Positions 4,928 through 63,657 of a DNA stretch of 64,000 nt are shown here, piece after piece. The stretch covers positions 82,038 through 146,037 of the forward strand of contig JBLYPS010000001.1 in the NCBI GenBank assembly GCA_048539495.1, read 5' to 3'. Source of the stretch: Dehalococcoidia bacterium. Lineage in GTDB: Bacteria > Chloroflexota > Dehalococcoidia > SZUA-161 > SpSt-899. The translations under genes were made by a program, and so were the position numbers. Under the pieces are notes generated by a model. It was given only the letters and a program-made list of their open reading frames with translations. It did not search any database and was not told where the DNA came from. How positions within the stretch are numbered: the first letter of the stretch is position 1; every line of letters begins with the position of its first letter.

Positions 4928-6019
4928 CTAAAATACCGCCACCTTTTTCTGTCGCAGGAGATAGAGAAAGAACGGCGCCCCTAAGAAGGCGGTTATCACC
5001 CCCACCGGTATCTCAGTGGGCGCCAGCACCGTTCGTGCCGCAGTGTCAGCCAGGATTAAGAAACTGGCCCCGGCAAGGGTAGTGAGTGGCAGCAGAAAGC
5101 GATGGTCAGGGCCCCAGATGAGGCGCACCGCGTGGGGGATGATGATGCCCACAAATCCGATAGTTCCCACAAAGCTGACTGCGGCGGCAGTGATCAGCGT
5201 CGCCGCCACCAGCAAAATCAGCTTGACCCGCTCGACATTAATTCCCAGTTGCTGTGCCTGCTCCTCATCGAGCTGCATCACATTTAGCGGTCGGGCATGA
5301 AGCCAGATGACCACCACCCCGATGATACAGGGTGCAGCAATCACCCATACTTGCTCCCAGTTGCTCAAGGAGAATCGGCCCATAAGCCAGGCGATTATGC
5401 CGTGCAATCTATCTCCGGAAATGATCATCAGGTAGGCGGTAATTGAGGCTAAAAAGGCACCCAGAGCCACACCGGCCAGGATAAGGGTGGTCACGGGTAG
5501 GGTTTTGCCCACCCTGGCGATGGAATAGACGGCGGTTACCGCCAGCAGGCCGCCGGAAAAGGCCAGCACCGGAATGAGGCCAGCCACCGACCAGGGTAGA
5601 AGGAATCCAACCACCGCGCCCAGGGCTGCCCCCTGGGCTACCCCGATGAGATAGGGATCTGCCAGGGGGTTACGAAACAGTCCCTGATAGGTAGCCCCGG
5701 CCACGGCCAGCGCAGCACCGACCAGGCCTGCCAGCAGCACCCGGGGCAGGCGAATATCAACGACAATTGTCTCCACCGCTGCTGACCAGGCGGGGGTGAT
5801 ATCTACAAAGGGCAGCCGGGAAAGCAACACCCCCCATATAGTGCCAATGGGAATGTGGGTGCTTCCCACCGCTGAAGCTACAACCATTACCACTCCCAGG
5901 AGCAGGGCCAGCCCGGCGATACTGTACAGGCGGCTTCGCCAGCGCAGCGAATAGGCTGCGGCGGCTTTCGGCAGTGGCATGGTCGTAGCCTTGGGCGGGT
6001 TGAATAATATCATCGTCAT
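4928..6019 (-). CDS. ABC transporter permease, FecCD/BtuC family
   Basis: 363 aa polytopic membrane protein with FecCD-type organisation. Translationally coupled with neighbours (4-bp overlaps). Confidence 0.85.
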   Translation of the reverse strand: MTMILFNPPKATTMPLPKAAAAYSLRWRSRLYSIAGLALLLGVVMVVASAVGSTHIPIGTIWGVLLSRLPFVDITPAWSAAVETIVVDIRLPRVLLAGLVGAALAVAGATYQGLFRNPLADPYLIGVAQGAALGAVVGFLLPWSVAGLIPVLAFSGGLLAVTAVYSIARVGKTLPVTTLILAGVALGAFLASITAYLMIISGDRLHGIIAWLMGRFSLSNWEQVWVIAAPCIIGVVVIWLHARPLNVMQLDEEQAQQLGINVERVKLILLVAATLITAAAVSFVGTIGFVGIIIPHAVRLIWGPDHRFLLPLTTLAGASFLILADTAARTVLAPTEIPVGVITAFLGAPFFLYLLRQKKVAVF

Positions 6020-6939: not shown

Positions 6940-7104
6940 TTCAACCTCCTTTCTATTTTTTGTGGGTATTAGAGTTTGTCACCGTACCCACGGTCGGTCC
7001 TTTCAACCCCAAAGGGTAGGGGGCGAATTTATTCGCCCTATCGAGGGAGGCTAAAGCCTCCCCTACCCATTTTCAATGGTTATCACATGTCTCTATCACC
7101 TCCT

Positions 7105-9793: not shown

Positions 9794-9809
9794 CAATGTG
9801 AGGAGGGTT

Positions 9810-12488
9810 ATGAATAGCAACGAGATCAGAGACGCTTTTCTGACGTTTTTCAGGGAAAAGGGGCATACGGTGCTGCCGAGTTCCTCCCTGGTGCCACATG
9901 GTGACCCGACACTGCTGCTGACCAGTGCGGGCGTGGTGCAAATTAAGCCCTATTTTATGGGGGAGGCCACTTCACCCAGCCCCCGCCTGGTGTCGTGCCA
10001 GAAATGCTTCCGCACCACTGACATTGATTCGGTCGGAGACGCCGGGCACCTGACTTTCTTCGAGATGTTGGGCAACTTCAGCGTGGGCGACTACTTCAAG
10101 AAGGAGGCCATCGCCTGGGCATGGGAATTCGTGACCGAACGTTTGCACCTGCCGGAGGAGCGCCTCTGGATAACGGTCTTCCTTGACGACGATGAGGCTT
10201 TTGATTACTGGCTCGATATCGGGGTACCTGGAGGGCGGATTGCTCGCTGCGGCGAGGAGGATAACTTCTGGGGACCTCCTGGAGACAGCGGTCCCTGCGG
10301 GCCGTGCAGTGAGATTCTGTATGACTTCGGTATTGGTTGTGGCGAGCCGGACTGCGGCCCCGCCTGCGGCTGCGGCCGCTTTTCTGAAATCTGGAATCTG
10401 GTCTTCACCCAGTACTACCAGGATGAACGGGGGAATCGCACCCCGCTGCCCAGGCCGAACATTGATACCGGCATGGGACTGGAGCGCACCGCAGCTATAA
10501 TGCAGGGCAAGAAGTCCGTTTATGAAACCGATCTGTTCAATCCCATCATGGATCGCATTTCCGCGATAACCGGACACAAACTGGAGTCGGGAGTCGGGAG
10601 TCGGGAGTCGGGAGTCCCCCTCCCATATAACGAAAGTGAGACCGTCGAGAGGGCGATGAGAGTCGTTGCCGAGCACGGGCGGGCAATTGCCTTTCTAATC
10701 GCCGACGGAGTAATCCCCTCCAACGAGGGCCGGGGCTATGTGCTGCGGCGGGTATTGCGGCGGGCGGTTCTCTTTGGCAAGAAGCTGGGATTCGATGAGC
10801 CTTTCCTCAGCGAGATAGCAAAGGTGGTCATCGAGCAAATGGGATGGCTTTACCCCGAACTTGCCACCAGCAAGGACTACATCATCAATACTATTGACCT
10901 GGAGGAAAGCAGATTCGATCAGACCTTGAATACCGGGATGAGATTGCTGGACGAAATAATGGCCCAAACTAAAGCGAGTGGCCTGGCGATACTTCCTGGC
11001 GAGCAGGCTTTCCGGCTTTACGATACTTACGGGTTCCCCAGGGAGATTACCTCCGCAATTGCTGCTGAGCATGGCCTATCCATGGACCTGGAAGGCTTTG
11101 GGCGAGAGATGGAGCGCCAGCGAGAGAGGGCGCGGGCAGCTCAGAAATTCGGGGGGGATATCAGCCAAAGTGAAGAATCGGCAGTCGTAGTGCGCTATCC
11201 ACCGGTTCGGTTTGTGGGTTACGACAAGCTAAGTCATGCGTCGAAGATCGCAGTGCTCCTGGTGGGTGGGCAGCAAGTGGAGGCTGCTTCTCAGGGGCAG
11301 GAGATCGAGGTAACGCTGTATGAAACCCCCTTTTATGGGGAGATGGGGGGGCAGGTAGGTGACATTGGCGAGGTCAAAGGGCCTCAGGGCAGGGTGATAA
11401 TTATCGGCGCCATAAGGCAAACCGACGACCTGGTGGTGCATCTGGGCAGGGTAGAAGAAGGAAGGGTTAGCGTTGGTGAGGAAGTTGTGGCGAAGGTCGA
11501 TTTTGAGCGTCGACTCGACATCGCTCGCAACCACACCGCCACCCACCTCCTCCAGGCAGCCCTGCGTCAGGTGCTGGGGGATCAAGTCCGCCAGGCAGGC
11601 TCGCTGGTCGCCCCGGACCACTTCAGATTCGATTTCACGCATCTTATCGCCCTGAGCAAAGAGGAGTTAAGAACGGTCCAGGGCATGGTAAATGAAAACA
11701 TCCGCCGGGATCTCCTGGTCTCCAGCCGAGTCTGCCCCTACAGTGATGCGATGACCGAAGGCGCACTGGCCTTCTTTGGGGAAAAATATGGGGATGAGGT
11801 TCGGATGCTGGAGATCAAAACCCCCGATTCTTCGGCGACGGTGAGCGCTGAGCTCTGCGGCGGTACCCATGTGCAAAGCACCGGAGAAATTGGACTTTTC
11901 CATATTACCAGTGAGAGGAGCATTGGTTCCGGGATGAGGCGCATCGAGGGGGTGACGGGAAGGGGGGCGGAAGCCCTCATTGCGGAGCGTTTTGCTGCGC
12001 TGGATGTGATCGCAGGCCAGCTTGAGGCGAGTCCCTCAGAGGCCGGGGAGAAGCTGGTGGCGCTTATCGCCGAGTTCAACGCCGAGCGCAAGCGAGCCAG
12101 AGGGTTAGAGAGCCAGCTTCTGCGTAGGACGGCCGAATCCCTTCTTCGTGAGGTCAGGCAGATAGACGGCATTAATGTCCTGGCAGCCAAGGTCTCCGCC
12201 TCAAACATGGAGCTATTGCGTCAGATGGGAGATTGGCTCAAGGATAAGCTCGGCAGCGCCGTGATTGTCTTAGGGGTGGTTCTGGAAGGAAATCCCCGGT
12301 TTTTGGCGATGGTTACCCCCGATTTAGTCGGCGATGGAATCCACGCCGGAGATATCGTGAAACAGGTGGCCCAGGTGACCGGGGGAGGTGGTGGGGGCAA
12401 AGCTGAAATGGCGCAGGCCGGCGGCAAGGACAGGAACAAGATCGATGAGGCACTGCGATTGGTTCCCAGGTTGATCGCGAAGGGGTAG
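9810..12488 (+). CDS. alaS: alanine--tRNA ligase
   Basis: 892 aa, AlaRS throughout (N-terminal catalytic domain, editing HxxxH/CxxxH region, C-terminal DHHA1 with the GGGGG motif). The ATG at 9810 is preferred over the GTG at 9798. Confidence 0.95.
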   Translation: MNSNEIRDAFLTFFREKGHTVLPSSSLVPHGDPTLLLTSAGVVQIKPYFMGEATSPSPRLVSCQKCFRTTDIDSVGDAGHLTFFEMLGNFSVGDYFKKEAIAWAWEFVTERLHLPEERLWITVFLDDDEAFDYWLDIGVPGGRIARCGEEDNFWGPPGDSGPCGPCSEILYDFGIGCGEPDCGPACGCGRFSEIWNLVFTQYYQDERGNRTPLPRPNIDTGMGLERTAAIMQGKKSVYETDLFNPIMDRISAITGHKLESGVGSRESGVPLPYNESETVERAMRVVAEHGRAIAFLIADGVIPSNEGRGYVLRRVLRRAVLFGKKLGFDEPFLSEIAKVVIEQMGWLYPELATSKDYIINTIDLEESRFDQTLNTGMRLLDEIMAQTKASGLAILPGEQAFRLYDTYGFPREITSAIAAEHGLSMDLEGFGREMERQRERARAAQKFGGDISQSEESAVVVRYPPVRFVGYDKLSHASKIAVLLVGGQQVEAASQGQEIEVTLYETPFYGEMGGQVGDIGEVKGPQGRVIIIGAIRQTDDLVVHLGRVEEGRVSVGEEVVAKVDFERRLDIARNHTATHLLQAALRQVLGDQVRQAGSLVAPDHFRFDFTHLIALSKEELRTVQGMVNENIRRDLLVSSRVCPYSDAMTEGALAFFGEKYGDEVRMLEIKTPDSSATVSAELCGGTHVQSTGEIGLFHITSERSIGSGMRRIEGVTGRGAEALIAERFAALDVIAGQLEASPSEAGEKLVALIAEFNAERKRARGLESQLLRRTAESLLREVRQIDGINVLAAKVSASNMELLRQMGDWLKDKLGSAVIVLGVVLEGNPRFLAMVTPDLVGDGIHAGDIVKQVAQVTGGGGGGKAEMAQAGGKDRNKIDEALRLVPRLIAKG
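10583..10624. repeat. half heptamer element inside alaS: (GAGTCGG)x5 plus a C-rich tail ccccctccc
   Basis: Tandem 7-mers read directly. Translated in frame as LESGVGSRESGVPLPY. No inverse arm follows. Confidence 0.7.
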
Positions 12489-12497
12489 CATGATGAG

Positions 12498-12628
12498 TGA
12501 TCCCGTAGGACGGGCATCTTGCCCGTCAAATGATTAGCAGTGATCCCGTAGGACGGGCATCTTGCCCGTCAAATGATTAGCAGTGATCCCGTAGGACGGG
12601 CATCTTGCCCGTTAATGCCCAATTAGCA
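12498..12628. repeat. three tandem 43-bp units, each carrying a GTAG-headed REP hairpin (GTAGGACGGGCATCTTGCCCGTC)
   Basis: The unit tgatcccgtaggacgggcatcttgcccgtcaaatgattagcag occurs three times; the third copy is slightly diverged. Each has an 8-bp stem with a 3-nt loop. Sits directly upstream of the RAYT gene. Confidence 0.85.
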
Positions 12629-12638
12629 GCAAAGAAAG

Positions 12639-13097
12639 ATGAGCCGACCTAAACACTTACAAACCGAAACTCGTTGCTACTTCGTCACTACAAATACAGA
12701 AGGGCGCAAAGCGTTGTTTGTAAATCACAGGGTAGCCCGGATAGTTATTGACGCCCTTCATTTCCTGCGAAAAGAAAGCAGAATAAGATTGTATGGCTTC
12801 GTGATAATGCCTGATCATTTGCATTTTATCCCCTTCCTTTCGGAGGGTGAAGAACTCCCCAAAGTAATGCATAGCCTGAAGAGTTTTACCGCTAAAGAGA
12901 TAAACAAAAACCTTCGCCGCTCGGGAAAAGTTTGGCAAGATGGGTATCACGGCCACGGAATAAGAGATGAACAAGATATGTTAATTAGGCTTAGATATAT
13001 GATTGAGAACCCCGTGCGGAAAGGGATTGTGGAGTGTCCAGAGGAATATAAGTTGAGTTCTGCTCATGAAAGCTGGGCGGTAGATTCATTATGGTAG
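12639..13097 (+). CDS. REP-associated tyrosine transposase (RAYT, IS200-like Y1 HUH family)
   Basis: 152 aa with the HUH motif MPDHLHFI and the catalytic-Tyr region WQDGYHGHGIRDE. Flanked on both sides by REP-type hairpins. Confidence 0.8.
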   Translation: MSRPKHLQTETRCYFVTTNTEGRKALFVNHRVARIVIDALHFLRKESRIRLYGFVIMPDHLHFIPFLSEGEELPKVMHSLKSFTAKEINKNLRRSGKVWQDGYHGHGIRDEQDMLIRLRYMIENPVRKGIVECPEEYKLSSAHESWAVDSLW

Positions 13098-13119
13098 GAT
13101 ACGATTCCTGCCCATTCAT

Positions 13120-13138
13120 GTCGGGCGAGACGCCCGAC
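13120..13138. repeat. REP-like palindrome GTCGGGCGAGACGCCCGAC downstream of the RAYT
   Basis: Perfect 8-bp stem with a 3-nt loop, a variant of the GACGGGCAAGATGCCCGTC REP. Confidence 0.6.
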
Positions 13139-13156
13139 CCACGTTGAAGGTAAGGT

Positions 13157-13576
13157 ATGCGCTTTCTAGGACTCGATGTAGGCGACAAGCGAATCGGCGT
13201 GGCGATGAGCGATCCCCTGGGTATCCTGGCAAGCGCCTTAACGCTGATCGAAGGAAAAAGCGACAGCGCTGCCCTTGAGGCCATACTCGATCTGGTAGAG
13301 AAAAATGAGGTGGGCTGCGTCGTCGTAGGATTGCCCCGCTCGATGGACGGCAGCGTTGGGAAGCAGGCAGCCAGGGTCGATGCGTTTGTGAAGGAACTCT
13401 CTAAGCTGACTGATGTACCGATAAAGATGTGGGATGAGAGACTCTCAACGATAGCTGCCGACAGGCTGCTGCGTGATGCCGGGAGAGATCGGCACCAGAT
13501 CAAAAACAGAAGGGATGCTGTTGCCGCCGCCGTCATACTGCAGGGGTATCTCGACAGGCACACGTGTGATTTGTGA
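13157..13576 (+). CDS. ruvX: Holliday junction resolvase-like RuvX/YqgF
   Basis: MRFLGLDVGDKRIGVAMSD...VVVGLP. YqgF family, 139 aa. Confidence 0.9.
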   Translation: MRFLGLDVGDKRIGVAMSDPLGILASALTLIEGKSDSAALEAILDLVEKNEVGCVVVGLPRSMDGSVGKQAARVDAFVKELSKLTDVPIKMWDERLSTIAADRLLRDAGRDRHQIKNRRDAVAAAVILQGYLDRHTCDL

Positions 13577-13645: not shown

Positions 13646-14479
13646 ATGACACAGACGATTGGGCTAATAGGTTATCCTCTGGGACACTCGATCTCGCCAG
13701 CGTTTCAACAGGCGGCCTTCGACCATCTAGGACTCGATATCCGCTATGAGCTCTGGGAGACTGAGACTGATAATCTGGGCGAAGCGGTGCAGAATATTCG
13801 CTCTCCCTACAAGCTGGGCGCTAATATCACTGTGCCCTACAAGGAGCAGGCACTGTCACTCCTGGACGAGATCGAGGAACTTGCCTCAGACATTGGAGCG
13901 GTCAACACTATTGCTAAAAGAGATGTCTGTCTGGTAGGATATAATACCGATGCTGGGGGTTTCCTGAGAGCACTGGAGGAGGAAGGCAGGTTCGATCCCA
14001 AAGGCAAGAAGGTAGCCATTCTCGGCGCCGGTGGTGTGGCAAGGGCGATCGGCTTTGTTCTGGTGAGATCCGGCGTTAGATCACTTACTCTCTTTGACAT
14101 TGACATCGAACGAGCGGAGAAGCTCGCTGCGGAATTGAAGGCTATGATTCTCAGTTCTGACCGGGATAGCCGGTTTGAAGAGGCGGTTTCCTCCGCCGAT
14201 CTGCTGGTAAACTGCACGCCGGTGGGGATGAAGCACAGCGCTTCCGAAGGGCAATCGCCCCTGGCTAAAGAGCTTATATCCCCGAAATCACTGGTCTACG
14301 ATGTGGTGTATAATCCCATCAAGACGCCGTTGCTCCAAATCGCGGAGGAGGTGGGGGCGCGTACCATTGGGGGGCTTTCGATGCTGGTCTATCAGGGGGC
14401 AGCCGCTTTTGAGCTATGGACCGGCCGGAAGGCGCCAGTCGAGGTAATGTTGCAGCGGGCGAGGAATGCCCTCTATTGA
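13646..14479 (+). CDS. aroE: shikimate dehydrogenase
   Basis: IGYPLGHSISP, NVTVPYK and ILGAGGVARAI motifs. 277 aa. Confidence 0.9.
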   Translation: MTQTIGLIGYPLGHSISPAFQQAAFDHLGLDIRYELWETETDNLGEAVQNIRSPYKLGANITVPYKEQALSLLDEIEELASDIGAVNTIAKRDVCLVGYNTDAGGFLRALEEEGRFDPKGKKVAILGAGGVARAIGFVLVRSGVRSLTLFDIDIERAEKLAAELKAMILSSDRDSRFEEAVSSADLLVNCTPVGMKHSASEGQSPLAKELISPKSLVYDVVYNPIKTPLLQIAEEVGARTIGGLSMLVYQGAAAFELWTGRKAPVEVMLQRARNALY

Positions 14480-22288: not shown

Positions 22289-22507
22289 ATGCGAGAGAAA
22301 GTTGAGGCTGCCCTCGACCTCATAAGACCGTCGCTTCAGGCTGATGGCGGAAATGTGGAGTTGGTAGGTGTTGATGGTGGTGTGGTCAGTGTGAAGCTTG
22401 TCGGAGCCTGCGGGTGCTGTCCCATGTCAACGATGACCCTCAAGATGGGCATCGAGCGAGTGCTCAAAGAGCAGGTGCCCGGGGTCGAAAAAGTAATCGC
22501 TGTATAG
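22289..22507 (+). CDS. NifU-like (Nfu) Fe-S cluster assembly domain protein
   Basis: 72 aa with the NifU C-terminal-domain motif GACGCCPMS. Confidence 0.85.
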   Translation: MREKVEAALDLIRPSLQADGGNVELVGVDGGVVSVKLVGACGCCPMSTMTLKMGIERVLKEQVPGVEKVIAV

Positions 22508-22605
22508 CATAAACGGTTCACGGTTCGGGGTTGGGGCTACGTAACCACTGAAGACGGGCAAGATGCCCGTCCTGTTTGAACCTACGAAGTGGGAGGGAGG
22601 CTGGA

Positions 22606-22845
22606 ATGCGGGGATGGTATGTTATTTGTGGTTCATGCGGCAGAAAGGTAGAACATTCCCATAGCGAGCCCCCTTGTGAGGTGCTCAAAGGGTGGCTTAC
22701 GGTCTCCTACTGGAAGGGTCTCGAATCTGTTGAGCACTATAGCTTCTGTTCCCTTAATTGTCTTCAGGAGTGGGTGGATAGTCACGTCCCTAAGATTCCC
22801 GAGGTATTCCTGAGATCCTTCGGGGAGGAAGAGGATAGAGCATGA
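22606..22845 (+). CDS. hypothetical small Cys-rich (zinc-ribbon-like) protein
   Basis: MRGWYVICGSCGRK...CSLNC, two CxxC-like pairs. No family recognised. Confidence 0.35.
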   Translation: MRGWYVICGSCGRKVEHSHSEPPCEVLKGWLTVSYWKGLESVEHYSFCSLNCLQEWVDSHVPKIPEVFLRSFGEEEDRA

Positions 22846-23156
22846 GAGAGGATATCGCGATTTCAAGAAGAGTGGTTCTCCGTTTCCCACGTTCCCTGCT
22901 TACCGAAACTTGAGAAGAAAAGCGCTGAAGACAGTCTTGAAATGTCATGCATCTATCGAGGGATACATCAGGCGGTATCCCTCATTTTTTACTGCCCTGG
23001 AACCGAGACCTATCCGGGGAGATGCCCCCCGGATCACAAGGGAGATGTCGCGGGCTGCCGGGCGGTTAATGACAGGCAAGATGCCCGTCCTACCTCGCCT
23101 GAGGTGATTGTTGAGAATGGAGGGCGCGGTCAAGATCGCTCCGGTACAGGAGGAAT

Positions 23157-23462
23157 ATGTTTGCGGTGATTCTCTGCACTAGCCCGCGCGAGGAGGCCGG
23201 AAGGATAGCAATGGCCTTAGTGGAGGAAAAGCTGGTTGCCTGCGTGAATATCGGCGAGGTCAATTCTTACTTCAGGTGGGAAGGTGAGATGCAGGAGGAA
23301 GGGGAAGCTCTCCTGATAATAAAGACGAGGGCCGTGAAGGTGAGGGAGATCATAGGCCGGATTCGAGAATTGCACAGCTATGAGGTGCCGGAGATCATCG
23401 CTCTCCCGATTATCGATGGCCATGAAGGGTACCTGGATTGGGTGAGGGAATCGGTTGAATGA
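23157..23462 (+). CDS. cutA: divalent-cation tolerance protein CutA
   Basis: 101 aa. AVILCTSP...VACVNI...SYFRWEG...IIKT is CutA1 family. Confidence 0.85.
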   Translation: MFAVILCTSPREEAGRIAMALVEEKLVACVNIGEVNSYFRWEGEMQEEGEALLIIKTRAVKVREIIGRIRELHSYEVPEIIALPIIDGHEGYLDWVRESVE

Positions 23463-23532: not shown

Positions 23533-24003
23533 ATGAAGCTAGCAGATTGGGCTCGTTCTCAAGGAATCACCTACAAGACAGCATGGCGTTGGTTTAAAGC
23601 TGGAATACTTCCTATACCAGCGGAGCAATTGCCAACCGGTACAATTCTAGTTTTCCCACCAACGCAGAATATAAATGACGGTGTTGCCCTTTATGCTCGG
23701 GTATCAAGTAATGACCAAAGGGATGATCTCACCAGGCAACTGGGGCGATTGGTGGAATATGCTAATAATGACAAGATGAAGGTAGTTAAATCAGTGGTAG
23801 AGGTAGGCTCTGGGTTAAACGGGCGGCGACCAAAATTAATACGATTGCTGCGTGATCCCGATATTTCTACTATCATAGTTGAACACCGTGACCGATTAGC
23901 TCGTTTTGGTTCTGAATATATTGAGGCCTCTCTAGTGGCTTCAGGAAGACGAGTGATTATCGTTGACCCAAGTGAGATGAAAGATGATCTAGCCCATGAT
24001 TGA
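23533..24003 (+). CDS. tnpA: IS607-type serine recombinase transposase TnpA
   Basis: MKLADWARSQGITYKTAWRWFKAG (HTH), then YARVSSNDQRDDLTRQ with the catalytic Ser. 156 aa. Confidence 0.85.
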   Translation: MKLADWARSQGITYKTAWRWFKAGILPIPAEQLPTGTILVFPPTQNINDGVALYARVSSNDQRDDLTRQLGRLVEYANNDKMKVVKSVVEVGSGLNGRRPKLIRLLRDPDISTIIVEHRDRLARFGSEYIEASLVASGRRVIIVDPSEMKDDLAHD

Positions 24004-24086
24004 TGTTTTAGTATCCTTTTGTGCTCGATTATATGGGAGGCGAGCAGCCAAGAACCGAGCTGAACGCGCTATAAAGGCAATGGATA

Positions 24087-25340
24087 ATGTTGATTAACCA
24101 AGCATATCGCTACGAACTAAAACCTAATAATGTCCAGGAAACGCTCCTAGCGAAACACGCCGGAACTGCTAGGTTCGCATGGAACTGGGCTTTGGCACAG
24201 AATAATAATACGAATGCCATTGCACAGCATCGGGAATGGAATGTCTGGAAACGGGAGAATGTGCCTTGGTGGACAGAGATATCCAAATGTGTGCCACAGG
24301 AGGCTTTCCGTGACCTCGATAGAGCGTTTAGTAATTTCTTTAGTATCTGGAGAGAAGCTAAGACCAACCCCAGTCTTAGGGCAAGAATAGCCAGGTCAAA
24401 GCCACGCAAGGATGGGAAGCCCTATGGCTATCCCAAGTTCAAGAAGAAAGGTGTGCATGACAGCTTTCATTTAAGGGGTGCTGTCCACGTCAAAGAGAGC
24501 CATGTACAGTTACCGAGATTAGGCACTATTCGTGTAAAAGAGAACACCAATGTTCAAGGCCGTATTTTATCGGTCACAGTAAGTCGTGAAGCGGATCGAT
24601 GGTTTGTATCATTGAGTGTGGAGAGAGAAAAGCCCGATCCAATTCCTATATCCGGCCCCATTATTGGAATTGACTTAGGTCTCGATTGCTTTGCCACGCT
24701 ATCTAATGGTGAGCATATTTATGCACCCAAGCCACTGAATAAAAGTCTCAAGCGGCTTAAGAGGGCATCTAAAAAACACTCACGCAAGCAGAAAGGCTCT
24801 AATAACCGGCGTAAGTCGGCTATGAGGTTGGCCCGTCTGCACCGGACTATTCGCAATCAGCGTCGGGATTTTCTGCACCAGGTGACGACGAAACTGGCGA
24901 AAACCAAGTCAGTGATTGTTGTCGAAGACCTGAACGTTAAGGGGATGGTGCGGAATGGTCGATTATCCCGACATATCTCAGACGTGGGGTGGGGTGAGTT
25001 TCAGCGGATGTTGGACTACAAGACGAAGTGGTGTGGTTCACATTTGGTTACCGCTGACCGCTGGTTCCCCTCATCCAGGATGTGTTCTACGTGCGGTTAT
25101 GTCATAGACGAGTTGCCACTTTCGGTTCGGAGATGGATGTGTCCCGTATGTAAAGTGGTGCATAACAGGGATGATAATGCTTCGTTGAACTTAGAGCATT
25201 ATTATACTACCGGGAGTTCCCCGGGAAGTCACGCCTGTGGAGATTCCTCTGGCGGCGGAACGGACGCAGTCTGGTCTACGAGCTACGGGTCTCGGAAGCA
25301 GGAATCAAACACCGATTATCCTGCTGGGATAAAAGGGTAA
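24087..25340 (+). CDS. tnpB: TnpB (OrfB) RNA-guided endonuclease-family protein
   Basis: 417 aa. N-terminal OrfB_IS605 region, RuvC-like residues and the C-terminal CxxC...CxxC (CSTCGY...CPVCKVV). Confidence 0.85.
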   Translation: MLINQAYRYELKPNNVQETLLAKHAGTARFAWNWALAQNNNTNAIAQHREWNVWKRENVPWWTEISKCVPQEAFRDLDRAFSNFFSIWREAKTNPSLRARIARSKPRKDGKPYGYPKFKKKGVHDSFHLRGAVHVKESHVQLPRLGTIRVKENTNVQGRILSVTVSREADRWFVSLSVEREKPDPIPISGPIIGIDLGLDCFATLSNGEHIYAPKPLNKSLKRLKRASKKHSRKQKGSNNRRKSAMRLARLHRTIRNQRRDFLHQVTTKLAKTKSVIVVEDLNVKGMVRNGRLSRHISDVGWGEFQRMLDYKTKWCGSHLVTADRWFPSSRMCSTCGYVIDELPLSVRRWMCPVCKVVHNRDDNASLNLEHYYTTGSSPGSHACGDSSGGGTDAVWSTSYGSRKQESNTDYPAGIKG

Positions 25341-25345: not shown

Positions 25346-27091
25346 GTGGAACGGTACAATCTAAGAATAGGTATCATCGGCGGTGGGCAACTGGGTAAGA
25401 TGATGACCCAGGAAGCGAAGAAGATGGGGTTTTATGTTACCATACTGGACCCCACGCCGAACTCCCCGGCCAGTCAACTGGCTGATGAGCAGCTCGTCGG
25501 CGATTTTCATGACCGGAATAAGATAAGAGAGCTTGTCACCAGGAGCGACGTAACCACCTACGACATCGAAAACATTGACGTAGGTGCCTTAAAAGAGCTC
25601 GTCGAGGCGGGACATGTTATCCACCCTTCTCCACAGATACTGGAGATCATCCAGGACAAGTGGAAACAAAAAAAGGTACTGGAGCGCAGCGGTATCCCTA
25701 TCCCGAGGTACAAGAAGGTCGAGGGGGATGCCCTCGCTGCTGCTGTTGAGGGATTCGGGTTTCCGGTGGTGCAGAAGGCCTGCCGGGGAGGCTATGACGG
25801 GAGGGGGGTATTCGTGATTCGTACCAGAGACGATATAGGAAAGGCACTCAAAGTGGAGTCCTTCCTTGAAGAATTTGTCGAAATCGAGAAGGAGCTCGCG
25901 GTAATGGTGGCAAGGAGTACTACCGGTGAGATCAAATGCTATCCGTTAGTGGAGATGGTCTTCGATGAGGCGGCCAACATCTGCGATATGGTTGTCGCTC
26001 CCGCCCTGGTGGAGCAAAAAATTCAAGACGAGGCCAGGCGAATAGCGGTTGCCGTGGTAGAGCCACTTGGTGGAGCAGGTATCTTTGGGATAGAGATGTT
26101 CTTAAGCAAAGCGGGGAATGTCCTGGTGAACGAGATCGCCCCCCGGCCTCATAATTCGGGGCACTATACCATAGAGGCTTGCGTCACTTCTCAATTCGAA
26201 CAGCACATTCGGGCGATCATGGAACTCCCGTTGGGCTCGACGGAACTGCTCACCCCAGCGGTAATGATCAACATTCTGGGTGAGGAAGGGCATGAGGGGC
26301 CGGCAATATTCCAGGGGATTCGAGAGGCTTTGCTCATCCCTGGAGCGAGTCTGCATCTGTATGGGAAAAGGGTTACCAGACCATTCCGCAAGATGGGACA
26401 TGTAACAGTAGTGGATAAGGACGCCGAGAACGCTTTCGAGAAAGCCCAGAGGATAAAGACACTTCTGCGAGTGGTTTCCTCTGACGAGTCGAGAGTCAAG
26501 AGTCAAGAGTCGAGAGTCGGGGAGGGGCGGGGGACTCCAGACTCCAGACTCCAGACTCCAGACTCCAGACTCCAGACTCGTAAGATGGTGGCAAGGGTAG
26601 GAATCATCATGGGGAGCGAGTCCGACCTCCCGGTGATGGAAGAGGCGGGGAAACTGCTGGAGGAGTTCGGGATTGGCCACGAACTTACCATTGTCTCCGC
26701 CCACCGGACGCCGGAGAGGATGTTTCAATATGCTCGCCAAGCGGAGGGGAAGGGGATTGAAGTGATAATCGCCGGGGCCGGCGGAGCCGCTCATCTCCCC
26801 GGCATGGTGGCCTCAATAACCCCCCTTCCGGTAATCGGTGTGCCGATCGAGACAACCCCCTTGAAAGGGCTGGACTCCCTTTATTCCATCGTCCAAATGC
26901 CGGCAGGAGTCCCGGTGGCGACCGTGGGGATAAATAACGGCCACAATGCCGCAATCCTGGCGATGCAGATTCTGGGGGTGAAGTATCCGCAGATCAGGGG
27001 GAAGGTGAAGGAGTATAAGCAGAGATTGCAGGAGAAAGTCGAGGAGATGGCGCGCAGGGTTGAGCAAAGAAGGAGGCAAGAGGAAGCATGA
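25346..27091 (+). CDS. purK-purE: PurK-PurE fusion: N5-carboxyaminoimidazole ribonucleotide synthase fused to N5-CAIR mutase
   Basis: N-terminal ATP-grasp (IGIIGGGQLGKMM...) followed by PurE (VGIIMGSESDLPVMEEA...GAGGAAHLPGMVAS). The two are joined by a linker encoded by heptamer element 26486..26580. Probable GTG start. Confidence 0.85.
   Translation: MERYNLRIGIIGGGQLGKMMTQEAKKMGFYVTILDPTPNSPASQLADEQLVGDFHDRNKIRELVTRSDVTTYDIENIDVGALKELVEAGHVIHPSPQILEIIQDKWKQKKVLERSGIPIPRYKKVEGDALAAAVEGFGFPVVQKACRGGYDGRGVFVIRTRDDIGKALKVESFLEEFVEIEKELAVMVARSTTGEIKCYPLVEMVFDEAANICDMVVAPALVEQKIQDEARRIAVAVVEPLGGAGIFGIEMFLSKAGNVLVNEIAPRPHNSGHYTIEACVTSQFEQHIRAIMELPLGSTELLTPAVMINILGEEGHEGPAIFQGIREALLIPGASLHLYGKRVTRPFRKMGHVTVVDKDAENAFEKAQRIKTLLRVVSSDESRVKSQESRVGEGRGTPDSRLQTPDSRLQTRKMVARVGIIMGSESDLPVMEEAGKLLEEFGIGHELTIVSAHRTPERMFQYARQAEGKGIEVIIAGAGGAAHLPGMVASITPLPVIGVPIETTPLKGLDSLYSIVQMPAGVPVATVGINNGHNAAILAMQILGVKYPQIRGKVKEYKQRLQEKVEEMARRVEQRRRQEEA
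26486..26580. repeat. heptamer-armed palindromic element: (GAGTCRA)x5, core ggaggggcggggg, then (ACTCCAG)x6
   Basis: Read directly. The arms are reverse-complement related through GAGTC/GACTC. Translated in frame as [37 protein letters not shown]. Confidence 0.85.
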
Positions 27092-27755: not shown

Positions 27756-28865
27756 ATGGCCAGAATCTTAGACGGGTATCAAACGGAGGCGATAAAGGAA
27801 GCGGCATCCCTCATTCAAAAAGGGGGGGTCGTGGCTTTCCCGACGGAGACGGTCCACGGGCTCGGGGCGGATGCCTTCAACCCCAAAGCCGTAGCCCTCA
27901 TTTTCGAAGTTAAGAAGAGACCCCGTTTTGATCCTCTCATCGTCCATATCGCTGAACTTTCCGATGTGAAGAAGGTTTGTCTTCACGCCGATGATCGAGC
28001 AGGGAAAGTGATGGAGTGGTTCTGGCCGGGGCCTTTGACCGTGGTGCTTCCGAAGACGCCGGAGGTGCCGGATATTGTGACGGCGGGACTTCCCACTGTC
28101 GCCGTGCGCTTACCCTCCCATCCGGTTGCCTTAAGCCTCATCCGCGAGGCACGGACGCCCATCGCCGCTCCCAGTGCCAATCTCTTTGGCTATCTCAGCC
28201 CAACGACAGCGGAGCATGTAAATGAGCAGCTCGGCAGCGCAATCGAGATCATCCTCGACGACCAACAGTCGGCAGTCGGCAGTCGGCAGTCCGGGGCGGG
28301 GTGGGGGACTAGCGACTATCGACTATCGACTTGGAATCGAGTGGGGGTGGAGTCCACCATTATTGACCTCTCTGAAGAGGAACCCGTCCTCCTGCGCCCC
28401 GGTGGAACGCCTCTGGAGGAAATCGAGAGGGTCATCGGGAGGGTAAAGATCCCGCCTCATGATCCCCAGCAACCCCGTTCTCCGGGGCAGCTTCCCCATC
28501 ACTATTCCCCCCGCACCCCCCTCAAGATTCTGCTTGATGAAGAATTGAGTATTGAGTATCGAGTTTTGAGTTTTGAGGAGGGGGGAGGGACTCCAGACTC
28601 CAGACTCCAGACTCCAGACTCCAGACTCGAGAGGGTTGGCCTTCTGGCATTCCAACGTCCCCGGGAGGGAGATTTTGCGGCAATTGAAGTTCTTTCCCCC
28701 TCCGGAGACCTCCGTGAGGCGGCGGCGAACCTGTTTGCGGCGCTCCACCGGCTTGATTCTGCCGGACTTGATCTTATCCTCGCCGAACCGGTTCCCGAGG
28801 GGGGGCTCGGCCGGGCGATCATGGATCGACTGCGCCGGGCAAGTGGAGTCCTGAGTCGAAGGTAA
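27756..28865 (+). CDS. tsaC: L-threonylcarbamoyladenylate synthase (TsaC/Sua5 family, with Sua5 C-terminal domain)
   Basis: VAFPTETVHGLGADAF..., PLIVH, GPLTVVL and APSANLFG motifs. It carries two in-frame heptamer elements, at 28267..28333 and 28546..28630. Confidence 0.85.
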   Translation: MARILDGYQTEAIKEAASLIQKGGVVAFPTETVHGLGADAFNPKAVALIFEVKKRPRFDPLIVHIAELSDVKKVCLHADDRAGKVMEWFWPGPLTVVLPKTPEVPDIVTAGLPTVAVRLPSHPVALSLIREARTPIAAPSANLFGYLSPTTAEHVNEQLGSAIEIILDDQQSAVGSRQSGAGWGTSDYRLSTWNRVGVESTIIDLSEEEPVLLRPGGTPLEEIERVIGRVKIPPHDPQQPRSPGQLPHHYSPRTPLKILLDEELSIEYRVLSFEEGGGTPDSRLQTPDSRLERVGLLAFQRPREGDFAAIEVLSPSGDLREAAANLFAALHRLDSAGLDLILAEPVPEGGLGRAIMDRLRRASGVLSRR

Positions 28866-32826: not shown

Positions 32827-33968
32827 AGGCGATACTGGTATTAGAAGATGGGACGGTGGTTGAGGGAAAGGGATTTGGATCTATTGGCAAAGCCCGGGGA
32901 GAGATCGTCTTCGCCACCGGAATGAGCGGCTACGTTGAATCATTAACTGATCCCTCCTATGCCGGCCAGACGCTGATGTTCACCTACCCCTTGATAGGGA
33001 ATTATGGGGTCAATGAGGAGGACTATGAATCGGATGGAATAAAGGTGGAAGGGATTGTGGTAAGGGAAGTCTGCCACCGGCCGAGCAACTGGAGATCCCA
33101 GAAGAATCTGGAGGAGTTTGCGCTTGAATTCCAGACCCCCGGTATTTGTGGAATCGACACCCGTCGCCTCACCAGAAAGATCAGGACCCATGGAACGATG
33201 AAAAGCGTCCTTCAGACGTTTGCCGGAGGTGAGGAGGTGAACCTGGAGGCTTTGAAGAGGGAAGTTAGGGAACAGAAGGGCATCTCCGAATTGAATCTGG
33301 TGGGGGGAGTCACCACGGTCGGGGCTAAACGAGTCAAGAGTCAAGAGTCGAGAGTCACGGGGAGGGGGACTCCAGACTCTGGACTCTGGACTCTGGACTC
33401 CAGATATGAGGTGGTGCTCGTAGACTGCGGTGCCAAGAGGAGCATCACGGAGAATCTACTGTGCCGGGGAATAAACGTCACCCTTCTTCCTTTCAACACT
33501 TCAGCGGAGGAAATTCTAGGTTATAATCCCGATGCGGTGTTGATTTCCAATGGCCCGGGCGACCCGGCGGTGGTGAAGGAAACCATCGCCACGGTGAGTA
33601 AGCTCATCGGCAAAACCGTGCTTTACGGAATCTGCCTCGGGCAGCAGATCATCTCCCTTGCACTGGGTGCCCGAACATATAAGCTGAAGTTCGGGCATCG
33701 GGGTTTGAATCAGCCGGTGAAAGACTTTGAAACAGGGAGGGTCTTTATTTCCACCCAGAACCACGGCTTCGCCGTTGCCGAGGAGGGGCTGGCGGAAATC
33801 GGGCTCGAGGTGACCCACATCAATCTGAATGATAATACCATTGAGGGCTTGAAACATAAGGAGCTCCCCATCAGAATGGTTCAGTATCACCCGGAAGCCG
33901 GACCCGGCCCGCATGACACCTATTCCTTCTTCGATTCGTTGATGGACGACATTTCCCGGAGGCATTAA
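32823..33968 (+). CDS. carA: carbamoyl-phosphate synthase small subunit (glutamine amidotransferase)
   Basis: MKAILVLEDGTVVEGKGFG.., GICLGQQ (catalytic Cys) and the HPE motif. Heptamer element 33331..33404 lies in frame at the inter-domain linker. Confidence 0.9.
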   Translation: MKAILVLEDGTVVEGKGFGSIGKARGEIVFATGMSGYVESLTDPSYAGQTLMFTYPLIGNYGVNEEDYESDGIKVEGIVVREVCHRPSNWRSQKNLEEFALEFQTPGICGIDTRRLTRKIRTHGTMKSVLQTFAGGEEVNLEALKREVREQKGISELNLVGGVTTVGAKRVKSQESRVTGRGTPDSGLWTLDSRYEVVLVDCGAKRSITENLLCRGINVTLLPFNTSAEEILGYNPDAVLISNGPGDPAVVKETIATVSKLIGKTVLYGICLGQQIISLALGARTYKLKFGHRGLNQPVKDFETGRVFISTQNHGFAVAEEGLAEIGLEVTHINLNDNTIEGLKHKELPIRMVQYHPEAGPGPHDTYSFFDSLMDDISRRH

Positions 33969-35619: not shown

Positions 35620-38469
35620 ATGCCAAGAAGGTCTGATATAGAAAGGATCCTGCTCATCGGGTCCGGCCCGATCATCATCGGGCAGGGCTGCGAGTTCGAT
35701 TACTCCGGGAGCCAGGCTTGCAAGGCGCTGCGGGAGGAGGGCTATGAAGTCATTCTGGTCAATTCGAACCCGGCAACGATCATGACCGACCCGGAGATGG
35801 CAGTGGCGACTTACATCGAACCATTGACCCCAGAGGTGATCGAAAAAATAATCGAGAAAGAAAGACCGGACGCTCTCCTCCCCACCCTCGGCGGTCAAGT
35901 TGGACTGAACATCGCCGCCGAGCTCTCCGAACGGGGAGTCCTCCAGAAATATAACGTGGAGCTTATCGGGGCCAAGTTCGAGGCAATCAGAAAGGCCGAA
36001 GATAGGATTCTCTTCAAGGAGGCAATGGAAAGGATAGGCCTGCGGACTCCGCGGAGCAAAGAGGCTTATTCGGCGGAAGAGGCGACAAAAATTGCCGAGG
36101 AGATCGGCTACCCCGTGGTTATCAGGCCGGCCTACACCCTGGGGGGAACCGGGGGCGGAATAGCCTTCAACCGGGAGGAGCTGGAGGTGATATCCGCCAG
36201 GGGCATAGAGTTCAGCCGCATCGGGCAGGTTCTTATTGAGGAGTCGGTCATCGGTTGGAAGGAATATGAGCTTGAGGTGATGAGGGACCTGGCCGACAAT
36301 GTGGTTATCATCTGCTCGATAGAGAACCTGGACCCCATGGGGGTTCACACCGGCGACAGCATCACCTGCGCTCCAGCCCAGACTTTGACCGACAGGGAAT
36401 ATCAGGAGATGCGCGATGCTTCCATAAAGGTCATGCGAGAAATTGGTGTTGAAACCGGGGGCTCGAATATTCAGTTTGCCGTAAATCCCCAAAACGGAGA
36501 AATGGTAGTCATCGAAATGAATCCCCGGGTGAGCCGAAGCTCCGCCCTAGCATCAAAGGCCACCGGATTCCCCATTGCTAAGATCGCCGCCAAACTCGCC
36601 GTCGGGCTCACCCTGGATGAGATACCGAATGATATAACGAAGGAAACCCCCGCCTCTTTCGAGCCAACCATAGATTATGTAGTGGTCAAGATGCCCCGAT
36701 GGCCCTTCGATAAGTTCCCCGAGGCGGATAAGACGCTCACCACGCAGATGAAATCGATCGGCGAGGCGATGGCACTGGGGAGGACATTTGAGGAAGCCTT
36801 GCAGAAGGCGGTGAGGTCGTTGGAGATCGGGAAGTACGGATTAACGAGTCGAGGGTCAAGAGTCGAGAGTCCAGAATCACGGGGAGAGGGACTCCAGTTG
36901 ACGGGCAAGATGCCCGTCCTACCAGACTCCAGACTCCAGACTCCAGATAGTCTTGGGGAGGAATTGCTCAACAAGCTGAGATTCCCGGTCGCCGAAAGAA
37001 TCTTCCTCGTCGCAGAGGCTTTCAAAAGGGGAATTCGTGTGGAAGAGGTGGCCGAACTCACCAGGATCGACCCCTGGTTTCTGGAGAAGGTCAAGAACAT
37101 CACGAGTCTAGAGTCTAGAGTCGAGAGACTCCAGTTGACGGGCAAGATGCCCGTCCTACCAGACTCCAGACTCCAGACTTCAAATCTCATCCCCCGGGAG
37201 CTAATGCTCGAGGCGAAGAGGATGGGTTTCTCCGATAGACAACTCGCTGATCTCTTGAAGACCGATGAGCTGGAGCTTCGGGGCAAAAGAAAGGAAATGG
37301 GGATAGTTCCAACATATAAGCTGGTGGATACCTGCGCCGCCGAGTTCGAGGCCAAGACTCCTTATTACTACTCTTGTTATGAAGATGAGGATGAAGTCGA
37401 GGTAACGCCAAGAAAGAAAATGCTCATAATCGGCGGGGGGCCGAACAGGATAGGGCAGGGTATTGAGTTTGACTATTGCTGCGTTCAGGCGGTTTTTGCC
37501 CTCAAGGAAGAGGGGTATGAAACCATAATGGTAAATTGCAATCCAGAGACGGTGAGCACAGACTACGACACCGCGGATAGACTATACTTTGAGCCTTTGA
37601 CCTTCGAGGATGTCTTAAACATCATCGAAAAAGAAAAGCCCGATGGAGTGATTGTTCAGTTCGGCGGTCAGACGCCTTTGAATCTGGCTATCCCTCTGGA
37701 GAAAGCGGGGGCGAGAATAATAGGAACCTCCACCAATTCCATTGATATGGCCGAAGATAGAAAAAGATTCAGCGCGCTCTTGCTAAGATTGGGCATTCCT
37801 CAGGCTGAGAATGGGACCGCTCTCTCCCTTGAGGAGGCGCTGAAGATAGCAGCAAGGATTGGTTACCCTGTTCTGGTCAGGCCTTCCTATGTGCTGGGTG
37901 GGAGGGGAATGGAGATAGTTTACGACGAGGAAACTCTGGTGAGGTACATGCGGGCAGCAATAGAAATATCTCCGGGAAAGCCGGTCCTGGTAGACAAGTT
38001 CTTGGAAGAGGCCACCGAGGTTGAGGTGGATGCCATCTTCGATGGGGAGGATCTCATGATCGGAGGGATAATGGAGCACATCGAGGAAGCGGGGATCCAT
38101 TCCGGTGACAGCGCCTGTGCTTTGCCCCCCCAGAACCTGGCCACTGAGACCCTAAGGGTGATAAGGGATTATACCGACAAGATCGCCCGGGAGCTGGATG
38201 TGAGAGGGTTGATGAACATCCAGTTTGCGGTGAAGGACGGGAGGGTGTATGTCCTGGAGGTGAATCCAAGAGCGTCCCGGACTGTGCCCTATATTAGCAA
38301 GGCGAGCGGCGTTCCCCTGGCGAAGATAGCCGCTAAAGTGTTGCTGGGCAAAACCTTAAAGGAACTGGGGGTGATGCGAGTCGAGAGTCGTCGAGAGTCG
38401 AGAGTCGGGGAGGGGTGGGGGACTCCAGAGCGAAGCGTCTCCAGACTCCAGACTCAAAACTTCCTGTAG
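35620..38469 (+). CDS. carB: carbamoyl-phosphate synthase large subunit, N-terminal about 90% (frame ends inside a heptamer element)
   Basis: Both ATP-grasp halves (two GSGPI(V)IGQG.EFDYSG motifs) and the oligomerisation domain, with in-frame elements at 36846..36946 and 37103..37183. The frame terminates at 38469 inside element 38377..38454. Confidence 0.85.
36846..36946. repeat. heptamer-armed element with REP core (TTGACGGGCAAGATGCCCGTCCTAC at 36898..36923) inside carB
   Basis: (GAGTCGAG-type 7-mers), the REP hairpin with its CTAC tail, then (AGACTCC)x3. In frame: [36 protein letters not shown]. Confidence 0.85.
37103..37183. repeat. second heptamer-armed element with REP core (37135..37160) inside carB
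   Basis: gagtctagagtctagagtcgag, then the REP, then agactccagactccagact. In frame: [26 protein letters not shown]. Confidence 0.85.
38377..38454. repeat. degenerate heptamer-armed element at the carB frameshift point
   Basis: gagtcgagagtcgtcgagagtcgagagtc, core ggggaggggtggggg, then gactccagagcgaagcgtctccagactccagactc. The arm units are irregular. The two carB ORFs overlap here in different frames. Confidence 0.8.
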
Positions 38470-39182
38470 CGGTAAAGGAGGCCGTTTTCCCGTTCTCCAA
38501 GTTCCCCGAAGTGGATCCGATCCTCGGTCCGGAGATGAAATCGACCGGCGAGGTGATGGGAATCGATGCCGACTTCGGTGTAGCTTTCTACAAGGCTCAG
38601 CTCGGTGCCGGAATGAATCTACCTGCTGAAGGCACGGTGCTCATCACGATCGCCGATAAGGATAAAGCGCGAGTAGTTCCGGTCGCCAGAAAATTCCAGG
38701 AGCTAGGCTTCGAGATCCTGGCCACCTCGGGAACTCAGGCTTGTCTCTCGGACCACGGAATCGAAAGCAAGAAGGTCTTCAAGATTCACGAGGGGAGGCC
38801 GCACATCGTGGATTACGTGAAGAACAAAATGGTGGACATAATCATAAACACCCCGCTGGGCAAAAAGGCAAGATACGACGATAGTTATATCAGAAAATCA
38901 GCGGTGCGGTACAACGTTCCCTATTTCACCACCGTCTCCGGGGCGGGGGCGGCGGTGATGGGGATAGAGGCGATAAAGAACCAAAAGGTGTTTTTCGAGC
39001 CTATACAAACATATCATGCCAAAACGAGTCGAGAGTCTAGAGTCGAGAGTCGGGGAGGGGTGGGGGACTCCAGACTCCAGACTCGAAAGGGGGAGGAACC
39101 TAATGCGCAGCGATACGTTGAAAAAAGGTCTGCAACGGGCACCGCATCGGTCACTACTCAAGGCTTGTGGGGTGATGGATGA
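38415..39182 (+). CDS. carB: carbamoyl-phosphate synthase large subunit, C-terminal MGS-like domain fragment (separate frame)
   Basis: After the element: [43 protein letters not shown]...MGS domain. The likely biological end is near 39030 (EPIQTYHAK). The open frame runs through element 39026..39086 into ilvD. Confidence 0.7.
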
Positions 39183-40752: not shown

Positions 40753-40907
40753 TCTGGAGTCTGGAGTCTGAAGTCCCCCTTTAGCCTTCAGCCTATCCAC
40801 CTGACTTGACTCTTGACTCGCATTGGGGGTGAGAGCTTTGGGAAATGCATAGGTGAAATCTGAACATAAATCAGAGGTAAAGCCAAAAACTAAGGAGGTC
40901 AAAAGAA

Positions 40908-41823: not shown

Positions 41824-41928
41824 TGTTATAATTAGGGAGTAGCATGTAGCGTGTAGTCTTGCTACCCTCTACACGCTATGTGCTATACGCTAAATGTTCT
41901 CTGTGGCTAAATAATTATAAGGAGAAGG

Positions 41929-62251: not shown

Positions 62252-62334
62252 ATCGTGCCTTTGGCTAGCGTGTAGCCCCACCCTCCCTACACGCTATACG
62301 CTATACGCTAACGTGCGCTACACGCTAATCTAGC

Positions 62335-63576: not shown

Positions 63577-63657
63577 CGATGTCTCCTCGGGTAGCGTGTA
63601 GTTAGGTAGCGGGTAGCCTCCCCACTCCCCTGCACGCTACACGCTATGCGCTACACG

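Follow-up and report, generated by a model that had tools for sequence, protein, structure and literature searches.

The 64,000-nucleotide stretch of DNA analysed here (the window) comes from a metagenome-assembled genome (MAG) of a Dehalococcoidia bacterium. Between alaS and ruvX it carries what is very probably a REPtron: a gene for a REP-associated tyrosine transposase (RAYT, or TnpAREP) of the HUH-Y1 type, present in a single copy in the window and bracketed by its cognate repetitive extragenic palindromes (REPs) in inverted orientation. An earlier inspection of the letters and their open reading frames (the sequence-only reading) had proposed a complete REP-RAYT locus in a Chloroflexota-like host. 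The origin of the DNA bears out the host, and the locus itself is supported by the profile score of the protein, by its closest structural relative and by the GT[AG]G-headed hairpins that face one another across the gene. The overall layout is 5'-GTAG-REP x3, RAYT gene, REP-CCAC-3', and its parts are the following.

12639..13097, plus strand: RAYT (TnpAREP) gene, 152 aa, recognised by profile scores, alignment and fold
12496..12624, plus strand: REP array of three head-to-tail units with a 43-nt period, in the alaS-RAYT spacer
12505..12527, plus strand: REP 1, with GTAG head, 8-bp stem and 3-nt loop, GTAG GACGGGCA TCT TGCCCGTC
12548..12570, plus strand: REP 2, same sequence as REP 1
12591..12613, plus strand: REP 3, ending in CCCGTT, with a 7-bp stem
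13120..13142, minus strand: flanking REP in inverted orientation, a variant that reads GTGG GTCGGGCG TCT CGCCCGAC on its own strand

The profile comparison suggested in the sequence-only reading separates the RAYT family clearly from the IS200 family. The protein scored 131.6 bits against the NCBIfam model NF047646 (REP_Tyr_transpos), for which the cut-off is 80, whereas the IS200 model NF033573 gave 28.6 bits, under its cut-off of 55. The Pfam model Y1_Tnp gave 42 bits. Among sequences in the PDB the top match was Escherichia coli TnpAREP (4ER8, E = 4e-7), and the same structure was the top Foldseek match of the AlphaFold model (pLDDT 92.3), with a template-modelling (TM) score of 0.76; the TnpA proteins of IS200, IS608 and ISDra2 were the second-best structural matches, at TM 0.51-0.59. 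An exact-sequence look-up revealed that NCBI already names the protein "REP-associated tyrosine transposase" (MBT9159230.1, MFW0858664.1). The window's RuvX, AroE, an MscS-like protein and the RAYT itself all have exact NCBI matches from Dehalococcoidia/Chloroflexota MAGs. Within the window there is one RAYT copy, the next tblastn match having E = 0.19.

The catalytic residues are intact. As had been recognised from the letters, this 152-aa protein has an HUH motif in the segment HLHFI; it consists of H60-L61-H62, within MPDHLHFI. The active site of E. coli TnpAREP comprises H59/H61, Y115 and N119, together with H123 and E161 (PMC3479197). In our alignment H60/H62 correspond to H59/H61 of the E. 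coli protein (4ER8), N124 corresponds to the metal ligand N119, and Y120, in LRYMIENP, corresponds to the catalytic Y115. P58, H60, H62, K81, W99, Y120, N124 and P125 are invariant in 25 sequences, namely 24 members of the clade and E. coli TnpAREP, which entered the alignment as a fragment. Judged by this alignment, the catalytic tyrosine is Y120, in RYMIENP. It had previously been sought in WQDGYHGHG, but this segment (residues 99-107) instead holds the invariant W99. Comparison with an ortholog of 87% identity gave a ratio of nonsynonymous to synonymous divergence (dN/dS) of 0.23; the gene is under purifying selection.

The hairpins on the two sides of the gene are members of one family. 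The array begins 8 nt past the alaS stop codon, and Tandem Repeats Finder detects the 43-nt period at 12496-12612 (2.7 copies, 100% matches). Units 1 and 2 are identical to each other and each contains the exact 23-mer GTAGGACGGGCATCTTGCCCGTC. The third unit (12582-12624), which diverges past its hairpin, was scored by the repeat search as diverged and 79% identical to the reference. The initial description, three 43-bp units each with an 8-bp stem and a 3-nt loop, is therefore accurate for the first two units only; the stem of REP 3 has 7 bp because its final base is T. On the other side of the gene the hairpin GTCGGGCGAGACGCCCGAC lies at 13120-13138, 22 nt past the RAYT stop codon, and since CCAC follows, it is a GTGG-headed REP of the minus strand, inverted with respect to the array. 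Its relatedness to the upstream hairpins, also noticed at the outset, is made more specific by two compensatory pair changes relative to REP 1 (A:T to T:A and A:T to G:C). As single-stranded DNA the REP folds into the expected 8-bp/3-nt form at -9.7 kcal/mol (z = -5.1 against shuffles). When up to three mismatches were allowed, the 23-mer occurred 7 times in the window, and there is one further variant; 100 shuffles gave an expectation of 0.00. A search for GT[AG]G followed by a perfect hairpin with a stem of 7 bp or more returned 8 sites in the window, versus 0-1 in Markov-simulated sequence, and 5 of the 8 belong to the family that flanks the RAYT gene. The window holds only one inverted pair of REPs, and the RAYT gene stands between its two members. 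Two more GTAG-tagged perfect hairpins, at 5619-5641 and 7045-7066 on the minus strand, have unrelated stems (GTAGCCCAGGGGGCAGCCCTGGG and GTAGGGGAGGCTTTAGCCTCCC) and could be chance matches or representatives of other REP classes.

Inverted REPs around the gene are the canonical REPtron arrangement for TnpAREP (PMC6006769), and this layout, a plus-strand GTAG hairpin, the RAYT gene and a minus-strand hairpin, recurs in differing contexts at four graded homologues among the loci that were fetched for comparison (numbered with the prefix L).

L125-127: 87% homologue, Chloroflexi bacterium CG07_land, in the same alaS-RAYT-ruvX-aroE position, with a different number and arrangement of REPs
L119-124: 62% homologue, between glyA and a nadC-like gene, GTAG-GACGGGCATCTTGCCCGTC upstream and GTCGGGCAAGATGCCCGAC-CTAC downstream
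L128-129: 54% homologue, between valS and nuoA, GTAG-GCGCGGGCATCTTGCCCGCGC upstream and GGTCGGGCGAGACGCCCGACC-TAC downstream
L131: 48% homologue, beside a helicase gene, flanked on either side by 53-nt tandem REP repeats, the two arrays being mutually inverted

A larger set of 94 homologous loci, including 80 at 31-51% identity from a metagenome scan, yields the same picture. A tagged hairpin was present upstream on the plus strand in 58 of the 94 and downstream on the minus strand in 58, with both in 49. In control segments of 360 nt, taken at least 1 kb from the gene, the corresponding figures were 18/447 and 19/447 (about 4% per side), so that the flanking arrangement is enriched about 15-fold at RAYT loci. 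Comparison of 16 distinct flanking REPs of the 8-bp/3-nt format reveals double compensatory changes at 7 of the 8 stem pairs, together with a conserved head, G-T-R-G, and a pyrimidine-rich loop.

The sequence-only reading had allowed that the hairpin might be absent from the rest of the genome. Beyond the array, four copies were in fact found in the window, at 22553, 23071, 36900 and 37137, all on the minus strand.

22553..22575, minus strand: dispersed REP with a perfect hairpin and a degenerate head, ACAG; intergenic, 46 nt past the stop of an open reading frame (ORF) at 22289..22507
23071..23093, minus strand: dispersed GTAG-headed REP whose stem has one mismatch, about 65 nt upstream of the ORF 23157..23462
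36895..36922, minus strand: exact REP within a 28-nt unit, GTAGGACGGGCATCTTGCCCGTCAACTG, nested in one arm of a palindrome of heptad repeats and read in frame as part of carB
37132..37159, minus strand: another copy of that 28-nt unit, likewise in frame in carB and nested in a different heptad palindrome

The 23-mers at 36900 and 37137 are exact, and the carB frame (35620..38469) translates both. When compared with CarB homologues that are distant and mostly partial (at most 49% identity), the first site corresponds to a surplus of about 28 aa in a loop of the oligomerisation domain and the second falls within a variable linker; a protein search for a closer carB allele lacking the REP insert returned only these distant sequences. 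The host palindromes are imperfect and consist of 7-nt tandem units (GAGTCNA ... ACTCCAG). Read on the REP strand, both sites have the sequence ...GGAGTCTG / GTAGGACGGGCATCTTGCCCGTCAACTG / GAGTC..., with CTG repeated at both junctions. Taking out 28 nt restores the heptad register, and this defines a discrete REP unit of 28 nt. By analogy with E. coli TnpAREP, whose cleavage dinucleotide is CT (PMC3479197), the carB units are compatible with insertion beside CT; the candidate cut site in them is a CT placed 1 nt 5' of GTAG and 2 nt 3' of the stem. The junctions at the two sites are identical, and duplication of one composite could be an alternative origin for the pair. Earlier reports already describe REPs that lie within ORFs or have been inserted into other palindromes (PMC3733652, PMC6006769).

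Several side observations concern the surroundings of the two intergenic copies. The REPs at 22553 and 23071 are in direct orientation, 518 nt apart, and bracket an 89-aa Cys-rich ORF (22576..22845). The second of them lies about 460 nt upstream of an IS607-type element (23533..25340), which is unrelated to the RAYT and comprises a serine-recombinase TnpA (23533..24003, 156 aa, with an N-terminal helix-turn-helix) and a TnpB-like ORF (24087..25340, 417 aa) with a Cys-rich C-terminal region.

If the protein behaves like E. coli TnpAREP, it would bind single-stranded DNA at the GTAG tetranucleotide and at the foot of the 8-bp stem. H60, H62 and N124 would coordinate a divalent metal, and Y120 would form a 5'-phosphotyrosine, with nearby DNA being cut and rejoined. 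Such a cut-and-rejoin reaction would copy the REP unit of about 28 nt to further chromosomal sites that are single-stranded or prone to form hairpins. DNA binding, cleavage, strand transfer and the position of the cleavage site are all projected here from the E. coli enzyme. We infer in addition that it was the present RAYT, and not an ancestor or another enzyme, that placed the dispersed copies.

How well do other explanations account for these data? The gene might be an autonomous insertion sequence of the IS200 type, encoding TnpA only, with the flanking palindromes as its terminal hairpins and the cassette itself mobile. The Y1_Tnp domain would fit this idea, as would the look of a recent arrival described below (low GC, a synonymous divergence of 0.29 versus 1.2-1.6, absence from closer relatives) and the different contexts that homologues occupy in other lineages. 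However, the protein falls short of the IS200 cut-off while far exceeding that of the RAYT model, the flanking hairpins are inverted and GTAG-tagged and do not form a left end and a right end on the same strand, the hairpin stands without the gene at four other sites in the window, there is one gene copy in 64 kb, and the closest fold is that of the monomeric TnpAREP. An IS200-type element is thus a very improbable identity for the locus. The more ordinary form of this idea, an IS200 element with a TnpB partner, had been named as an alternative in the sequence-only reading and was rejected on the sub-threshold IS200 score, on the single copy in the window and on the neighbouring genes, which are alaS (9798..12488) upstream and ruvX (13157..13576) and aroE (13646..14479) downstream. 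No TnpB adjoins the RAYT gene, and the only one in the window, that of the IS607-type element, is about 11 kb away. Yet another suggestion would be that the hairpins are ordinary terminators or regulatory stem-loops that lie beside a transposase gene by chance, since they are GC-rich stem-loops in the intergenic spacers that follow alaS and the RAYT gene. But the hairpins have no T tract, and a scan of 12300-13300 scored no terminator-like site; this segment also has no Rfam family, and its promoter-like sites are at the chance level. The conserved GT[AG]G head and the identical copies inside carB also speak against terminators, and the enrichment at the 94 loci, taken with the terminator scan, effectively refutes this explanation, to which we attach next to no weight.

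The more serious competitor accepts the RAYT and its REPs by descent but holds the system to be inactive now. The gene would be a conserved relic or would serve the host in another way, with the REPs as fossils whose only use now, if any, is as structural elements of RNA or DNA, perhaps as stabilisers of mRNA 3' ends or as protein binding sites. E. coli TnpAREP itself shows hardly any activity and is auto-inhibited (PMC3479197). Degeneration is evident in two of the dispersed copies, the head being lost at 22553 and the stem mismatched at 23071; the array lies directly 3' of alaS, a position in which a stable hairpin in the RNA could have an effect, and insertion polymorphism was not observed. 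On the other hand, all the catalytic residues are intact and dN/dS is low. Four 23-mers are identical, two of them in coding sequence, where erosion by drift or selection would be expected. The number and arrangement of REPs differ between the two orthologous alaS-ruvX loci, which means that there has been turnover since they diverged. Present-day inactivity therefore strikes us as unlikely, although it retains a minor share of the probability.

Some observations do weigh against a REPtron of the familiar kind and should be set beside the evidence in its favour. The RAYT is without the C-terminal tail that provides E161 in E. coli TnpAREP, and K128 replaces H123 of that protein, so the details of metal binding and auto-inhibition may differ from those in E. 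coli. Inverted REP doublets (REPINs), a feature of the best-studied Pseudomonas systems, were looked for and rejected as a description of the window, in which all copies are singletons or head-to-tail repeats. The evidence for dispersal amounts to 4 copies in 64 kb, of which two possibly represent one duplicated composite. The 100% pairing seen among the 16 flanking REPs is partly by construction, because the detector requires pairing. Finally, low synonymous divergence and patchy presence do not agree with simple long-term vertical domestication at this locus.

This last point deserves closer consideration. Synonymous divergence (dS) from the 87% ortholog is 0.29 for the RAYT gene, versus 1.6 for alaS and 1.2 for ruvX. 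The GC content of the RAYT gene is 0.436 overall and 0.45 at third codon positions, the values for neighbouring genes being 0.55-0.58 and 0.61-0.67. Moreover, three lineages that are closer to the present genome by RuvX identity (72-77%, versus 66% for L125) lack a RAYT in the alaS-ruvX interval, and in about 20 kb from these relatives there is no REP of the RAYT-flanking type. Their alaS-ruvX spacers are located as follows.

L213, 3428-3991: alaS-ruvX spacer without RAYT
L212, 3889-4000: alaS-ruvX spacer without RAYT
L214, 991-995: alaS-ruvX spacer without RAYT

Among the three, the spacer is an empty 112 nt, is occupied by a toxin-antitoxin-like pair (DUF433 + PIN), or is almost absent. The alaS-ruvX spacer seems to be a recurrent landing site. 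Because of the low dS, the low GC and the absence from closer relatives, the cassette looks younger than the locus in which it resides. Transfer or recombination between lineages is one possible source of this young look, and repeated loss combined with a slow clock is another; slow RAYT clocks and long-term horizontal transfer have both been discussed (PMC5581495). A cassette younger than its locus would be relevant to a debated question, namely whether RAYTs descend vertically as domesticated genes or are still moving between genomes.

Among known systems the REPtron of E. coli K-12 (TnpAREP/RayT, also YafM, 4ER8, with its y and z REPs and bacterial interspersed mosaic elements, BIMEs) provides the most direct comparison. 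The HUH-Y1 fold is shared, the HUH histidines, catalytic tyrosine and asparagine occupy aligned positions, GTAG stands 5' at the foot of the hairpin, inverted REPs bracket the gene and solo REPs are found elsewhere. The two proteins are nevertheless only 21-22% identical and differ in length (152 aa here, 165 aa in E. coli). The REPs differ too; those of E. coli have long bulged stems, while the stems here are perfect, with 8 bp and a 3-nt loop, and are arranged as singletons or head-to-tail arrays in contrast to the BIME/REPIN doublets. By motifs and size alone the RAYT most resembles Bertels group 3, which is Quentin subclass 2.5. For that class a median length of 151 aa, a DH[LF]H motif, WQ as the W motif and mostly short REPs have been reported (PMC6006769, Table 1), and the present system, like its members in Pseudomonas and Xanthomonas, has 152 aa, DHLH, WQ and a short REP. 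The Y motif is different, however, being YMIENP here (clade consensus Y-x-x-ENP) and YI[VI]ANP in subclass 2.5, and that subclass is largely confined to xanthomonads and pseudomonads and has REPIN doublets. With TnpA of the IS200/IS605 family (IS608, ISDra2) the protein shares the catalytic core and, presumably, chemistry on single-stranded DNA hairpins; the score below the profile cut-off, the lack of same-strand left-end and right-end hairpins, the lack of TnpB and the absence of multiple copies in the window set it apart.

The REPs themselves have close parallels outside the Proteobacteria. A 2013 survey by Di Nocera et al. describes GTAG REPs in Proteobacteria, Cyanobacteria, Chloroflexi (GTAG-23 of Thermomicrobium roseum) and the Planctomycetes-Verrucomicrobia-Chlamydiae (PVC) group (PMC3733652). 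That survey names 24 families, and in the features described the present REPs are like those from outside the Proteobacteria, such as T. roseum GTAG-23 and the families of Cyanobacteria and the PVC group, in having a GTAG or GTGG tag, a stem of 6-9 bp and a loop of 2-3 nt, in forming tandem clusters together with flanking DNA, and in occurring within palindromes and within ORFs; Dehalococcoidia are not among the host classes that it discusses. RAYTs of group 4 were reported in 2017 to be common in Caldilineae (PMC5581495), and class 2 TnpAY1 genes are present in about 25% of species (PMC6006769). The sequence-only reading had considered the system noteworthy for lying outside the Proteobacteria, but with REPs of Chloroflexi (PMC3733652) and RAYTs of Caldilineae already published, and with the protein already named by NCBI, its novelty was overstated. 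In the literature searched we found no paper on REP/RAYT systems in Dehalococcoidia, and nothing relevant on the exact REP and heptad sequences. The locus adds a well-defined Dehalococcoidia example, in which the unit measures 28 nt, the hairpin is short and perfect and the inverted flanking variant has compensatory changes, to a family whose protein automatic annotation already recognises. The general understanding of REP/RAYT systems is unchanged by it.

A contig scan indicates that the hairpin is by no means restricted to this lineage. At least 117 stretches, belonging to about 60 assemblies and about 8 phyla, contain an exact match to the 19-mer GACGGGCAAGATGCCCGTC; by our estimate, chance would give about 4 matches for a 19-mer of uniform composition in 2 x 596 Gb. 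The hosts among the matches listed (L001-L117) include deltaproteobacterial, Desulfomonilaceae and Thermodesulfobacteriota MAGs, many Cyanobacteria, as well as Planctomycetota, Verrucomicrobiota, Acidobacteriota, Bacteroidota-related MAGs, Pseudomonadota and one other Chloroflexi MAG. About 85-91% of these listed matches have a CCAC or CTAC tail and most have a GTGG head, and many of them form inverted doublets with a second hairpin type, for example GTGGGACAGGCTTCCAGCCTGTC (a perfect doublet occurs in L066). The identity of a 19-nt hairpin across about 8 phyla suggests that a RAYT/REP specificity has been widely transferred. A tblastn search of the 117 blocks of 8 kb around the matches found no RAYT, a result that is expected for a single-copy gene and is uninformative. 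In the other Chloroflexi MAG (L039) seven head-to-tail REPs of the RAYT-flanking family are present at 2460-2640, with a spacing of about 26 nt and alternating loop and stem variants; a GAGTC heptad array (774-822) lies 1.7 kb from this cluster.

The palindromes that host the carB REPs belong to a second repeat family, made of imperfect palindromes of 7-nt tandem units with the structure (GAGTCNA)n - GGGGAGGGGYGGGGG - (ACTCCAG)n. Eleven arrays of GAGTC/GACTC heptads occur in the window, one of them a possible case, compared with one (in L039) in 1.22 Mb of other fetched loci.

10581-10624: heptad array
26468-26590: heptad array
28297-28331: possible heptad array
28538-28636: heptad array
33327-33415: heptad array
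36849-36951: heptad array
37100-37185: heptad array
38377-38461: heptad array
39015-39109: heptad array
40751-40780: heptad array
61441-61537: heptad array

Long open frames span most of these arrays. AlaS has an in-frame insertion of 15 aa, LESGVGSRESGVPLP, which coincides with the element at 10581-10624; the AlaS proteins of three close relatives (L125, L212, L213) do not have it. The ORF at 25346..27091 (581 aa) joins a PurK-like N-terminal part to a PurE-like C-terminal part through a linker encoded by the element at 26468-26590, and it may be a gene fusion that the heptad repeat created or bridged. The carB frame breaks within an element rich in G runs (38377-38469), the frame 35620..38469 stopping there and the C-terminal part being encoded in another frame by 38415..39182; this could be a homopolymer error of the assembly or a real frameshift.

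These observations raise the possibility, tentative and in our estimation rather doubtful, that some Chloroflexota harbour a nested repeat system, with REP/RAYT as one layer and the heptad palindromes with their G-rich cores as the other. The palindromes could then be a mobile repeat, not described before, that is translatable, enters essential genes in frame and can be compared with the Rickettsia palindromic elements; their hairpin tips would serve as preferred landing sites for 28-nt REPs moved by the RAYT. The 15-aa insert of AlaS, the loop inserts of CarB and the PurK-PurE linker could be cases of this kind. If such a system exists, the RAYT would write the peptide LTGKMPVL into host enzymes. 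The REPs lie in frame within an essential enzyme, inside another repeat family which may itself merit separate study.

A third repeat family in the window has a like architecture, with a 7-nt unit, CTACACG/CTATACG, and the core GGGGGGTAGGGAGG. Its members are the following.

41862-41896: third repeat family
49174-49234: third repeat family
57735-57755: third repeat family
62273-62311: third repeat family
63604-63664: third repeat family

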